From a phage: a stretch of DNA of 40,608 nt. The notes under the pieces were generated by a model. That model did no database searches and was not told where the DNA came from. It was given only the letters and a program-made list of their open reading frames with translations. The stretch is from the sequence record OZ370878.1. One strand, written 5' to 3'. The position numbers were made by a program, and so were the translations under genes. Shown here piece after piece: positions 1-40,608 of the stretch (within the stretch, counting starts at the first letter, position 1; every line of letters starts with the position of its first letter).

Positions 1-137
1 GTAACACCCAAAGACAAACCCAAGGGTCATCCCCAACCCTTAGGGAACCCTCAAGGTCAACCGAAGGTTGACTTTAGGTGATTGGCTGGGCTTTAGGTAC
101 CCCCTATGGGGGAACTTTAGGTCCGTACACTGTGAGA
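1..137. repeat. Partial copy of T7 160-bp terminal repeat (reverse complement, bases 24-160)
   Basis: Identical to 40319..40455; matches remembered T7 terminal repeat sequence. Confidence 0.9.
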
Positions 138-376
138 TAGTCACTCAGATTTTTATGGTATATTTTAAAGGACCCTATAGGAACTCCATAGGCCCTCTCT
201 AAGACCCTCTTTAGGTGACACTGATAGGATGGCCTATCTTTAGGTATAGACCTTAGGATAGACCATTAGAGGCTCTTTATGGGTATACCTTAGGACTTGA
301 CTCTATAGGGATGAAGTGGTGTGATGCAATCATACCGCTGAATCCCTCGGTGAGCCATCAGTCGGTCAGGAAGACC

Positions 377-5366: not shown

Positions 5367-8300
5367 TTTCCTACGCTCCCTCAAGTTAACACCGTTCGCC
5401 TCATAAATCTTCAACACAAGCTGTTGAGTCAATGGGTCGTTCGGTACTAACTCTTTTGTGGAGTTCATAAGACCAGTCATGAAGTCCTGCTCGGTTGCTT
5501 TATTAGGTGAGTTGACCACGCCAGCAGCATTCATTAAGGTAGCCCCTACGTTAGCCACAAAGCCAGCCGAAGGCATCTGTTCCAGAAGGTTTGAACCCAT
5601 AGCGCCCATTACCTCTCTAGAGGTGTACGGTTTGTTTGGGTCACGTTCCTTCACGGTGTCCTTAGGTAGAATCGTAGAGCGAGCCATCTTGGAGGACTCG
5701 AACCCTAAAACACCACCAACTAGGTCAACCATAGCCAAAGGAGCACCCAATTGAGAACTACGAGATAACGCAGCGTGGGCAATCATGGTTGGGTCCAGTG
5801 CACGCTCCAAGTACTCCTTACGTTTCTCCTTAGGCAGAGCGTATGCTTTGACGTGTGCAGCCATAGCATAGAAACCACCAGCGAGACCCATAGAGGTGAT
5901 GATGCTCAGCGCAGCGTCAATCGCTCGGTTGTTCTTGTATCCATCATAGAAGGTTCGCAGGAACTTAGAGTTAAGGGACTTGATAGTGAAAGACTTAAAC
6001 TGCATAACCATCTTACCTAGTGCTCCGAACGCATGGGAATCCTGTAAGGACACCTTATGTGGACGCAGCATTGCCTCATCAGCTACCTTGTCAGCCAGTC
6101 TCCATAAGTCCATAGCCCGTGGGTCCATAGAGAACGCTTGCTTGTCCTTAACGGTAAACTTCCCGTCCTCACCGCGTACCATATGTTCCTTGATGAGAGA
6201 CTTGATGCCAGCCATCTGCTCAGGAGTTACGGAGGCACCACGAAGGAAGCCTTCTTTCTCCCAGCGGGTAGTCTTACCTGTTAGGGTGGCACTAATAACA
6301 TCCCCAAGCATACCTTGACGCGCAGCATCCAGAAGGTAGTTAGTGGTTCCGTTCAGTAGCTTAGTCCACGGAGAGCGAGCAGCCAGTTCCTGTGTTGAAT
6401 ACTTCAAGGTCCCTACGATGTTCGCCACGGCAGGTCCGGTATCAGTTGCTTCCCTTAGGCGCTGCACAATGTCAGCACGTTTAGGCCGAATCAACTGGTC
6501 CACCTCCTTCCCGAACAGAGACGCATGGAGTTCCTTGAGTTCCTTAGCTGAAACTGGTTTAGACTTGTAGAGTGTATCACGCAGAATTGGGATACTATGC
6601 CCTAGAGCACGAACGTTACCAGTGACAATCATCCCAGCAATCTCCGTAATGTTCTGAGCACCCATGTAGGCGTTCTTAGCGAAGAACCCTAGGTCATTGA
6701 TGGCACGCAGTGAGGTTTCCCACACAGTGTCCTGATTGCGTCTAGCACGACCAGTAAGAATCTTAACGGTATCCATTAAAGCATGTACCTCGCCAGTCTT
6801 CTTACCGTCTCCCTCAGCTTTCGCTTTGAGAGCCAAAATCTCATCCTTAAGTTCCTTAGTGGTTTTACCAGTAGACCCCATGATGGCGATGTCACCATTG
6901 ACACGGCGGTCATACGCTGGCATGATGCGGAACATATCGAAGTCCCTTAGGTCATTCACTGAGAATTGCTGTCCGTCTGGCATAGTGATGGATAGGTCCG
7001 AATCAAACAAGTTACGTGCCTCAAGGAATGAGTTATTCTCGATACCTACTAAGCCCTCAATGTTCTCTTCTATTATGGAACTGTTGGTGAACTGGTCTGA
7101 GTGGGAGATACCATAAGCCTTATCCATAGCGTACTTCTCTACCATCTCTGGTGTTACTTCCTTCACCCCGTGTAATTCCTTAAGCATCTCATCGACTCTG
7201 GCCTTGACCTCAGGTCTGGAGACGTAGCTGTTCATCCATGAGCGGGCAATCCCTTCCTGCAAACCTTCGGCACCGTAGCGTTGAATCATCAGCGCCTTGG
7301 CATGACGGTCATATACGTGAGGAACGTAAGTACCTTTGTGGCGACTCTCAGGGAAGATACTCACAGCCTTTGTGTTACCGAATATTGCTGGGTTTTCCAT
7401 AAGTTCACGCTTGGTGTCAAAGTGACGCTTAATGATGTCCATAACGATTCTCTCAGACGGAGTGAGTGCCTTCTGTAGTTCTGGACGCTCAATAGCTAGT
7501 GCCGCTCTACGGTAGATAGTGTATCGAGTTTCTTCACGGGACATCTTAGCGCCGCCAGTAGAGAACTCAGGGTCTTTCATAGCGTCAGACATTGCTTTGT
7601 ACAAGTCATTATAAGTACGCTGGTCAGTACCATGAAGTCTCTCATGGATGTCAGAAGCTGTTGCACCGAACTTACCTGAGGCACCAGACTGCATACCAGT
7701 AGGAGAGCGAACGAGGTCGATAGCCACTCTACGGATGTCAGCATCGTCAGACCCCAAGGTCTTCAAGCCAATCTCGGTGAACCCAGCCAGTTTGATTCCT
7801 CGCGCAGCCTTCTCAGGGTCAACCTCGGAGAACTCTTTTAGAGTCTTAGGGTTGATTGGGTTGCTTGCACTTAGAACGGAGCCATCATGTAACACCACGG
7901 CACCTCTCTCTGTTGGTAAGTCCTCATAAGGGACACCATTATGTTCACCTTCAAACTTCATGTTCTCAGTGTTCATCCGAGAGAGGTCCGCAGAGTTGGC
8001 GTTTCGTGCTGTCTCACGGGCTTCCAATCGCATCATAGGACCGATGAACTCATTGTCGAACTCAGCTTCTGGTTTACTGCGTTTCAGTCCAGCAGCTACA
8101 GCGTCACTGATTGCAGACATGCCTGCGCCAAACACAAAGCCACCTAAGGCAGCACCCGCATAGTCTGCGTCACCACCAGCTACGGAGGTACGGAGACCTT
8201 CGGATGCAACGTTCAGAGCAGCACTTTCGGCACCAACTACAAGAGCCTTATTGATTAACTTAAAGCCCTTACCAGTGACACCGACCATAGGAACATAGCT

Positions 8301-12635: not shown

Positions 12636-12658
12636 TCTCCCTATAGTGAGTCGTATTA
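12636..12658 (-). promoter_or_regulatory. T7 RNAP promoter phi13
   Basis: Reverse complement of TAATACGACTCACTATAGGGAGA. Confidence 0.9.
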
Positions 12659-15702: not shown

Positions 15703-15752
15703 AGCAAAAAACCCCTCAAGACCCGTTTAGAGGCCCCAAGGGGTTATGCTAG
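15703..15752 (-). terminator. T7 T-phi late terminator
   Basis: Reverse complement of CTAGCATAACCCCTTGGGGCCTCTAAACGGGTCTTGAGGGGTTTTTTG. Confidence 0.92.
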
Positions 15753-15755
15753 TTA

Positions 15756-16453
<698 letters not shown>

Positions 16454-17563
16454 TTATGTAATCCCAGCAGCATTTACGTACTCATGAAGGACCATGTGGT
16501 CACGAGAATTCGGATCCCCGAGCATCACACCTGACTGGAATACGACAGCTCCTGCAGCTTCTGGGCGAAGACCACCGTGGCCCATTGCGTACTTAGCGAT
16601 AATCTGGTCCGCTTGGAAGTTAGCACGGCGAGCGCGCTCCAGAGCCAAGTCACGCAGCTTAACAGTACCTACCGCGGAGCGGTGCATGAACAGGCCGATA
16701 ACGTTGTCCTTAGCAACCTTGACATTACCCTCACCTTTATTGGCAGGGAAGACGTGCTTCTGACCAGTAGTGCCCTCACGAGCGGTACCAGCACCACCAG
16801 CGGTGAGGTGCGGAACTTCTACAACCTCAAAGCCCATAACGTTGCGGATAGAACCCTTCTCAGGGTCAATCAGAGCAGCGTAGTTTGCTGCGTTCGGCAT
16901 CAGTGCTGCCAGAATCGCAGAGTAGCTATCTGGGTCACAGTAGAACACACGGTCAGCAGCCGGAACATAGTTCTTGGTCAGAGCCGCACGAGCCTTAGTC
17001 AGAGCCGCAATAATCTCCTTACCCAGCGCAACTTGGTCGGTAAGTGCGGCCTTGTTCTGAGTGGTCTCAATTACGGTAGCAGTACCTAAGCCCTCGATGT
17101 TCTCATTATATTTGCTTTCCACGTTACACAGACCGGCAATCTCAGCCAGAACCGCACCATCCGCAGCCATCGCCAGAGATTCACCCAACTGAGAGGTATA
17201 CTCAGAGCGAACGTCGTAGTGGTTCATCGCGTCCTCAATATCATAAATCAGAACGTCAGCCGTCAGGAGACCGTCAATGGTGATTACCTTCTCGGTGTGT
17301 TTGATGTCCTTACGTTTATCGTCGAGGTTCTCGCCCGGAGCCAGATACGCTGCCTGAGTGCGACCCAGAACAGGGAACTGAGCGGATTTACCGCTGGAGA
17401 TGGAACGTACCATGTGGCGAGAAGTGGTCACGGAGGTACGAGCGAACGCAGTCAGGACTTCACCGCCAAATACCTTCAAGAACAACGCCAGTTTATCTCC
17501 AGCAGCAACTACACCTTTACCTTGGTTAGTACCCATTTGCTGTCCACCAGTCATGCTAGCCAT
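16454..17563 (-). CDS. 10: T7 major capsid protein gp10 (residues 1-348, read-through form) fused to GFP11 tag
   Basis: 369-aa ORF MASMTGGQQMG...AAGAVVFQSGVMLG-DPNS-RDHMVLHEYVNAAGIT then TAATAA. Confidence 0.97.
   Translation of the reverse strand: MASMTGGQQMGTNQGKGVVAAGDKLALFLKVFGGEVLTAFARTSVTTSRHMVRSISSGKSAQFPVLGRTQAAYLAPGENLDDKRKDIKHTEKVITIDGLLTADVLIYDIEDAMNHYDVRSEYTSQLGESLAMAADGAVLAEIAGLCNVESKYNENIEGLGTATVIETTQNKAALTDQVALGKEIIAALTKARAALTKNYVPAADRVFYCDPDSYSAILAALMPNAANYAALIDPEKGSIRNVMGFEVVEVPHLTAGGAGTAREGTTGQKHVFPANKGEGNVKVAKDNVIGLFMHRSAVGTVKLRDLALERARRANFQADQIIAKYAMGHGGLRPEAAGAVVFQSGVMLGDPNSRDHMVLHEYVNAAGIT
16457..16504 (-). other. GFP11: GFP11 (M3) tag coding segment, 16 codons RDHMVLHEYVNAAGIT
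   Basis: C-terminal 16 aa of the gp10 fusion match the GFP strand-11 complementation peptide. Confidence 0.95.
16505..16516 (-). other. Cloning scar GGATCCGAATTC (BamHI/EcoRI) encoding DPNS linker
   Basis: Adjacent restriction sites directly after gp10 codon 348. Confidence 0.85.
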
Positions 17564-17620
17564 ATGTATATCTCCTTCTTAAAGTTAAACAAAATTATTT
17601 CTAGAGGGAAACCGTTGTGG
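17564..17620 (-). promoter_or_regulatory. Gene 10 leader and ribosome binding site
   Basis: GGGAGACCACAACGGTTTCCCTCTAGAAATAATTTTGTTTAACTTTAAGAAGGAGATATACAT ATG. Confidence 0.9.
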
Positions 17621-17643
17621 TCTCCCTATAGTGAGTCGTATTA
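17621..17643 (-). promoter_or_regulatory. T7 RNAP promoter phi10
   Basis: Reverse complement of TAATACGACTCACTATAGGGAGA. Confidence 0.93.
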
Positions 17644-34600: not shown

Positions 34601-34627
34601 GTTCTCCTATAGTGAGTCGTATTGATT
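34601..34627 (-). promoter_or_regulatory. Single hybrid T7 RNAP promoter phi1.1A/phi1.1B
   Basis: CGCCAAATCAATACGACTCACTATAGGAGAACCTTAAGG: phi1.1A upstream flank joined to phi1.1B downstream flank. Confidence 0.8.
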
Positions 34628-38434: not shown

Positions 38435-38658
38435 TGCATTGTGTCCTTTATGTTCGTTATGAGATAGCGTTCAGTGTGTTGGCTAGTGCCTGTTCAAGTG
38501 CGGCGAGTTTCTTGGCTTTAACCTTTTCCTTTCGTCTATGCCACGCCGCCCTCTCTTGTTCCTTGCGGCGTTCGAGGTTGTTCTCTCGCCAAGTTCTCAC
38601 TATTCGCCGATTTGCAGCGTATAGTGTGCCATTGGGCATATAACCTTTCTTTAAGCCA

Positions 38659-39600: not shown

Positions 39601-39705
39601 CTAGTCATGCACTCAAGAGCTATTTACCAGATTGTTAAAGAGCGTCTTAGGTCAGGTTTCGTTAGACCGCATCACCTTTCAGTGTGGTGACTCACTGTCG
39701 TTTCA

Positions 39706-39742
39706 TGTGGTACATCGTACCGTGTTTACTTCATGTTGTCAA
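39706..39742 (-). promoter_or_regulatory. Host sigma70 early promoter A3
   Basis: TTGACA and TACGAT hexamers on minus strand. Confidence 0.65.
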
Positions 39743-39829
39743 CCGTTTTGTTTCACCTTATGTGCCGTGGTGCGCTTAAGTCACCTAGAAGGCACTGTGC
39801 GCCCGGTTGACGCTGCTAGTGTTACCTAG

Positions 39830-39868
39830 CGATTTGTATCTTACTGCATGTTACTTCATGTTGTCAAT
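39830..39868 (-). promoter_or_regulatory. Host sigma70 early promoter A2
   Basis: TTGACA and TAAGAT hexamers on minus strand. Confidence 0.65.
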
Positions 39869-39957
39869 ACCTGTTTTTCGTGCGACTTATCAGGCTGTCT
39901 ACTTATCCGGTTGACCCCGGTGTCGATTGGGATGGCTATTCGCCGTGTCCCTCTCGA

Positions 39958-40295: not shown

Positions 40296-40455
40296 AGGGA
40301 CACAGAGAGACACTCAAGGTAACACCCAAAGACAAACCCAAGGGTCATCCCCAACCCTTAGGGAACCCTCAAGGTCAACCGAAGGTTGACTTTAGGTGAT
40401 TGGCTGGGCTTTAGGTACCCCCTATGGGGGAACTTTAGGTCCGTACACTGTGAGA
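40296..40455. repeat. Full 160-bp T7 terminal repeat (reverse complement)
   Basis: AGGGACACAGAGAGACACTCAAGG...GGTCCGTACACTGTGAGA; its last 137 bp equal window 1..137. Confidence 0.9.
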
Positions 40456-40608
40456 TAGTCACTCAGATTTTTATGGTATATTTTAAAGGACCCTATAGGA
40501 ACTCCATAGGCCCTCTCTAAGACCCTCTTTAGGTGACACTGATAGGATGGCCTATCTTTAGGTATAGACCTTAGGATAGACCATTAGAGGCTCTTTATGG
40601 GTATACCT
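40456..40608. repeat. Wrap-around duplicate of window 138..290 (right-end unique DNA of the next genome unit)
   Basis: Exact identity of 1..290 with 40319..40608. Confidence 0.9.

Follow-up and report, generated by a model that had tools for sequence, protein, structure and literature searches.

The phage sequence record OZ370878.1 comprises 40,608 nucleotides, and this whole stretch of DNA is referred to here as the window. It carries a T7-type capsid gene 10 whose product ends in a GFP11 tag. A sequence-only reading of the window had claimed that every capsid subunit bears the tag, that high-copy display might limit access of the GFP1-10 partner or affect assembly, and that the phage might need complementing wild-type capsid protein from its host. 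The locus thus raises the question of whether any untagged capsid protein can be made from this genome and, if none can, whether a shell of tagged subunits depends on help from outside. Judged by the features described below, the window would be, with a probability of roughly 0.93, the engineered phage T7-Split-S* or a construct indistinguishable from it, and no wild-type capsid protein would be needed (Levrier et al., 'A synthetic cell phage cycle', Nat Commun 2025, PMC12808745; bioRxiv 10.1101/2025.06.14.659709). The all-tagged split-GFP T7 design is already known and published, and the window holds nothing new on natural biology.

The tagged capsid gene and its removed frameshift site

The reading frame of gene 10 was confirmed to be continuous and uninterrupted over 369 codons, as had been claimed (Table 1). 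The product starts with MASMTGGQQMG, the beginning of the T7 capsid protein. In a comparison with PDB chains its residues 1-342 were identical to the T7 10A chains 2xvr and 3j7v-x, and this identity stops at F342. Counted with Met = 1, residues 1-349 equal T7 gp10B and the fusion point lies after G349; the numbering used for T7 and T7Select omits the initiator Met, so that G349 is counted there as residue 348. The placement of the tag behind residue 348 through DPNS, as given in the sequence-only reading, is therefore correct, whereas its description as having almost no linker holds less well, since QSGVMLG in the 10B frame and DPNS together put 11 residues, not 4, between the tag and the last residue shared with 10A. 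The complete appendage beyond gp10B (DPNS and tag) amounts to 20 aa and 2.2 kDa. When the tag was joined to the product of the downstream ORF, the two aligned end to end (1-230) with GFP and sfGFP chains of the PDB, by which the tag was recognized as GFP strand 11, residues 215-230. It differs from strand 11 of sfGFP at three positions only (LLEFVT versus LHEYVN).

Table 1. Features of the gene 10 region, listed in the direction of transcription (window coordinates).
Feature	Position	Strand	Remarks
phi10 class III promoter TAATACGACTCACTATAGGGAGA	17621..17643	minus	exact consensus match; corresponds to V01146 phi10
s10 leader/Shine-Dalgarno, copy 1	17566..17599	minus	34-nt exact direct repeat; GGAG 8 nt 5' of ATG
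gp10B(1-348)-DPNS-GFP11 capsid gene	17563..16454	minus	369 aa, 39.1 kDa; no internal stop (ORF listing)
Recoded former 10A/10B -1 frameshift region	16520..16553	minus	slippery GGTTTTC and 10A stop gone
DPNS linker (GAT CCG AAT TCT)	16505..16516	minus	residues 350-353; BamHI/EcoRI cloning-site codons of the T7Select cassette
GFP11 tag RDHMVLHEYVNAAGIT	16457..16504	minus	residues 354-369, 16 aa
TAATAA double stop	16451..16456	minus	after the tag
s10 leader/Shine-Dalgarno, copy 2	16417..16450	minus	exact 34-nt repeat, ahead of GFP1-10
Spacer ATA GGT GGC ACT AGT	16401..16415	minus	in frame with GFP1-10
GFP1-10 detector fragment	16400..15756	minus	214 aa, 24.0 kDa; separate cistron on the gene 10 transcript
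Terminator Tphi	15704..15745	minus	15-pair stem followed by T run (terminator scan); identical to wild type

About one tenth of the capsid subunits of wild-type T7 are 10B and the remainder are 10A. According to the annotation of the wild-type record, 10A stops just past the slippery GGTTTTC, while 10B is produced through a -1 shift. In the window this region has been recoded to GCA GGA GCT GTC GTA TTC CAG TCA GGT GTG ATG CTC GGG, followed by GAT CCG AAT TC. The recoded block is base-identical through GAATTC to the T7Select-type gene 10 of MZ318361 and differs from wild-type V01146. The wild-type GGTTTTC was not found in the recoded gene 10, and a scan of the gene for in-frame heptamers of the form X_XXY_YYZ returned none. 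The sequence-only reading had named a second intact gene 10 copy, or an internal restart producing untagged protein, as a finding that would refute it. Searches of the whole window with gene 10 by tblastn and blastn returned this locus only, and the product of an internal restart would lack part of its N-terminus but keep the tag and is therefore irrelevant as an untagged source. Because gene 10 is present as a single copy with a continuous ORF and without the frameshift site, the genome encodes no untagged capsid protein, of the 10A type or otherwise, and 100% of the subunits are GFP11 fusions in the 10B frame. On this point the earlier claim was borne out.

The downstream GFP1-10 cistron and its expression

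Gene 10 is separated by TAATAA and a ribosome binding site from a second cistron, which is itself ended by another TAATAA ahead of Tphi. The ORF of this cistron encodes a protein almost identical to residues 1-214 of sfGFP as present in PDB chains, e.g. 5wua. GFP1-10 had been named in the sequence-only reading as the 24-kDa partner of the tag, but its encoding directly downstream, in cis, had been left out. The second s10 leader was confirmed by alignment, in which positions 24158-24196 of the reverse complement of the window fall on T7 22930-22967. In an exact search for the T7 promoter consensus, the interval from gene 10 to GFP1-10 gave no hit, and the next exact match downstream of phi10 in the direction of transcription is located at 12636-12658. 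As no promoter intervenes, gene 10 and GFP1-10 share the late transcript from phi10 and the partner is made in cis. Recombination between the two 34-nt s10 repeats would delete gene 10 and place GFP1-10 directly under phi10; since the capsid gene is essential, phages with this deletion should eliminate themselves. No repeats flank GFP1-10.

The start region of GFP1-10 is unusual in that an ATA codon (16413-16415, minus strand) stands 7 nt past the duplicated Shine-Dalgarno, at the position expected for a start of the CCATGG type. The first actual ATG of GFP1-10 follows five codons after this ATA and 22 nt from GGAG. A Shine-Dalgarno-like AGGTGG is located 8 nt 5' of the real ATG; the duplex energies compared for this site and the s10 Shine-Dalgarno are -7.5 against -8.8 kcal/mol. 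The ATA may have been designed, may be a start-codon mutation that became fixed and reduces the output of GFP1-10, or may be a nanopore error. For the protein prefix derived from the spacer no match was found in the literature and a PDB search gave no chain that carries it, and the sequence of the synthetic fragment is absent from the preprint supplement (bioRxiv 10.1101/2025.06.14.659709).

The arrangement suggests a simple mechanism. T7 RNA polymerase would transcribe both cistrons from phi10, with additional read-through from phi9. All 415 subunits would be made as gp10B-GFP11, the small tail of which would leave scaffold-directed procapsid assembly undisturbed, and soluble GFP1-10 in the same cytoplasm would dock on the exposed C-terminal strands and mature to fluorescent GFP, giving self-labelling capsids. 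Wild-type capsid protein would be unnecessary for this assembly. We infer that procapsids form mostly from subunits that are not yet complemented and that GFP1-10 docks afterwards or in parallel, because a shell in which each subunit bears a complete, pre-formed GFP is lethal while the split version is viable.

Green fluorescence of T7-Split-S* has been described on infection, both in lysing cultures and in synthetic cells, the latter containing fluorescent capsid material, with fluorescent clusters that later disperse (PMC12808745). Adsorbed phage fluoresce at membranes at high titre, namely at 1e11 PFU/mL only, and no such signal was obtained at MOI 100 or at lower titres (PMC12808745). As adsorbed phage become visible only at this titre and ATA occupies the start position, the occupancy of the tags by GFP1-10 is probably incomplete (<100%). 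Owing to the ATA, the output of GFP1-10 may likewise fall short of the design. A more far-reaching version of this view, which is possible though doubtful, holds that all subunits are tagged but sparsely complemented, with few mature GFPs per particle, and that the construct mainly reports infected compartments. Poor translation of GFP1-10 via the ATA, or steric or kinetic limits, have to be considered as causes. With regard to translation, the ATA lies at the optimal spacing and the real ATG is far from GGAG, as would be expected for a weakly expressed partner, whereas the AGGTGG in front of that ATG and the s10 Shine-Dalgarno have similar duplex energies. With regard to fluorescence, the restriction of the membrane signal to the highest titre fits sparse loading, whereas the green signal in lysing cultures and synthetic cells argues against it. 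This reading is about occupancy alone and does not conflict with the explanation of the window as T7-Split-S*.

Cassette, backbone and identity of the construct

The native phi10 and s10 have both been kept, which we take to be the high-copy '415' configuration, the mid- and low-copy versions weakening these elements. Over nt 1-1058, gene 10 equals the T7Select-type gene 10 of MZ318361 with the exception of one synonymous change. The T7Select 'UP' primer GGAGCTGTCGTATTCCAGTC, the sequence of which is quoted in PMC3499470, matches exactly at 16533-16552, and the 'DOWN' primer matches within Tphi at 15710-15729. In the T7Select415 cassette as described by its users, the cloning site comes directly after 10B residues 1-348, and peptides of up to about 40 aa have been displayed on all 415 copies with packaging and particle integrity unharmed. 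The same characteristics were found here, i.e. 10B up to residue 348 in the context MLG DPNS, the removed frameshift site, and retained phi10 and s10. The deleted vector genome of T7Select415 (about 37 kb) is not what surrounds them, as all of V01146 is represented in the alignment apart from a 75-bp deletion and the insert.

In this alignment, T7 V01146 and the reverse-complemented window agree at 99.9% over the whole length. At the 3' end of gene 10, 755 nt replace 141 nt of V01146. Moreover, a 75-bp deletion (T7 5849-5923; window about 34607-34623) fuses the promoters phi1.1A and phi1.1B and presumably arose by recombination between their near-identical repeats; PP384400 is probably free of this deletion, its full record having 39,938 bp. 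The assembly is permuted and reverse-complemented and begins 153 bp before the right terminal repeat. A sequence of 290 bp (T7 39625-39914) is present at both ends of the window (1-290 and 40319-40608), and the true left end of the genome is at position 40455. The 290-bp end duplication is not biological but an assembly artefact that stems from terminally redundant or concatemeric reads. In the early region, the window additionally differs from V01146 by gp0.3 A58V (39359), gp0.7 R295W (37552) and T7 RNAP M431V (35994), and at window position 38560 (T7 1896) in the gene 0.6 region. The early-region differences include a 1-nt insertion, which may be the additional base of the 39,938-bp T7 records AY264774 and PP384400.

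The backbone also bears on the idea of an origin as a clone in the commercial vector T7Select415-1b, i.e. a display phage of the library type and not a rebuilt wild-type T7. Such a clone would contain the gene 10 3' end, the GDPNS junction and both T7Select primer sites, all of which are present. This origin is nevertheless extremely improbable: the window matches wild-type T7 over its full length, from base 1 up to the right end, with the 75-bp deletion and the insert as its only structural differences, GFP1-10 is followed by the wild-type ...TAATAACTAGCATAACCCC context and not by the T7Select ...CTCGAGTAACTAGTTAACCCC context, and the published assembly map uses PCR fragments of T7 WT together with a 1722-bp synthetic fragment. 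A T7Select vector backbone was rejected on the basis of the alignment to full-length T7 and the absence of the early-region deletions.

In the tail fibre gene, gp17 carries S541R (T7 36246 T>A, window 3669, AGT>AGA) and a synonymous change at S543 (window 3663; T7 36252 A>T), both of which are common to the PHEIGES rfaC mutant PP384400. S541R is named as the mutation for recognition of RdLPS (PMC12808745); it is an adaptation to the rough LPS of the rfaC host and the source of the 'S*' in the phage name. Five further missense changes, gp8 C249Y (19545), gp9 I147T (18141), gp12 L529P (13488), gp15 A29S (11506) and gp16 G909S (6596), are private to the window and absent from V01146 and PP384400. 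A 100% match to the gp8/gp9 segment was not found in a collection of 50,697 phage records, and the best eight listed records score equally at 2769 bits, as expected if each of them has both mismatches. The changes in gp8 (portal) and gp9 (scaffold) could be compensatory for the tagged capsid, or they could be PCR or propagation errors, or drift. It is unlikely that gp9 I147T, gp8 C249Y and the ATA are adaptive changes that were fixed during propagation, lowering the loading with GFP1-10 and retuning procapsid assembly. If this were true, the all-tagged design would have a real fitness cost, as the sequence-only reading had suspected, but one that was solved genetically and not by a helper protein.

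According to the preprint supplement, T7-Split-S* was assembled from PCR fragments of T7 WT, a 1722-bp synthetic fragment 'gp10b-GFP11-RBS-GFP1-10' and a right-end fragment from PP384400. Its stated accession is ENA OZ370880, and the nanopore genomes were deposited as OZ370878-80 (PMC12808745). The window shows every described feature of this phage: gp10B with a C-terminal GFP11 stands in place of 10A/10B, GFP1-10 follows downstream with its own RBS, the backbone is that of wild-type T7 with the S541R tail fibre of the rfaC-adapted PHEIGES mutant, and the permuted ends with their 290-bp overlap fit the published nanopore assemblies. No difference contradicting the identity was found. The legend of Fig. 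2E puts gfp11 at the N-terminus of the capsid gene (PMC12808745), whereas the sequence and Fig. S14 of the preprint have it at the C-terminus; the 'N-terminus' of the legend is taken as a slip. The PP384400 template is called 'rfaC_2' in the preprint supplement versus 'rfaC_1' in the GenBank title.

A full-text search of the literature for GFP11, GFP1-10, T7 phage and capsid returned only Levrier et al. When the gene 10/GFP1-10 region was used as a megablast query against the phage collection (release 31 Aug 2025), no record covered at least 80% of it. T7 records covered at most 68% of the query, by its T7 parts only, and a search with the GFP1-10 region matched only generic GFP genes on plasmids.

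Growth without a helper and comparison with known systems

T7-Split-S* was booted in cell-free E. coli extract; on E. coli rfaC it was purified from plaques, and it lysed liquid cultures (PMC12808745). It was also amplified in 2-5 L of E. coli rfaC, with stocks at 1e11 PFU/mL, and in the searched portion of the paper's text no helper plasmid supplying capsid protein is mentioned (PMC12808745). Because the phage booted, grew and amplified with no helper mentioned there, the proposed need for wild-type capsid protein supplied by the host is unsupported, all the more as high-copy display of short peptides is tolerated. The concern about bulk and assembly behind this proposal is reasonable for a whole GFP. 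Both 10A and 10B were replaced deliberately, because a full-length sfGFP-gp10B fusion had given no viable phage (preprint supplement). It is this problem that the split design was chosen to avoid.

The same data bear on the idea that the phage depends on untagged or de-tagged subunits, a host-independent form of the concern in the sequence-only reading. Part of the subunits would lose the tag to proteolysis, or because translation occasionally shifts frame or terminates close to the 3' end without being programmed to, and this part would make assembly possible. Stops in the other frames lie near the tag (at 346 in the +1 frame and at 354 in the -1 frame, each counted along the shifted frame itself), but the gene has no slippery heptamer, and there is no second gene 10. 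The C-terminal tail lies outside the folded core of 10A, where proteases could reach it. The lethal sfGFP fusion makes clear that C-terminal cargo affects assembly, whereas the same cassette is reported to bear peptides of up to about 40 aa on its 415 copies, compared with a tail of only 20 aa here. Particles also form in cell-free extract and inside synthetic cells, which argues against such a dependence; it is thus very unlikely. The preferred reading remains that of a T7-Split-S* shell built entirely from tagged subunits.

For the interpretation of the window this means that it is a synthetic construct, the odd features of which are design choices. Self-labelling capsids permit a live view of assembly, packaging and adsorption, a use that its authors have already published. 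The value of the construct is practical and not conceptual, and the tolerance of the shell for full occupancy by GFP1-10, together with a possible adaptation of the phage to it, is a modest engineering question.

The construct combines two standard parts, a capsid fusion of the T7Select415 type and split GFP, and is best described by comparison with the systems from which these are drawn. The natural 10A/10B frameshift system of T7 has in common with it gene 10 and the use of the 10B frame for a C-terminal extension. The natural system makes two capsid forms, whereas the present phage is without the slippery site and the 10A stop.

With Novagen T7Select415-1b it shares a 10B that ends at 348, the GDPNS codons, the recoded frameshift region and the retained phi10 and s10, as well as cargo on all 415 subunits and the display of short peptides without a helper host. 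Unlike that vector, the present phage has a full-length wild-type T7 backbone with a GFP1-10 cistron inserted before Tphi, and it originates from cell-free genome assembly and not from ligation into vector arms.

The self-complementing split GFP, consisting of GFP1-10 OPT and GFP11 M3, was reportedly introduced by Cabantous, Terwilliger and Waldo in 2005. It is the Cabantous system that the preprint supplement of T7-Split-S* cites as its split GFP. As in that system, strands 1-10 (214 aa) and the 16-aa RDHMVLHEYVNAAGIT are separate polypeptides in the window and are collinear with sfGFP 1-230. In contrast to the Cabantous system, both halves are here encoded by the phage on one late transcript, and the tag is carried on an icosahedral shell in 415 copies, joined to it by a cloning-site tetrapeptide and not by a designed flexible linker.
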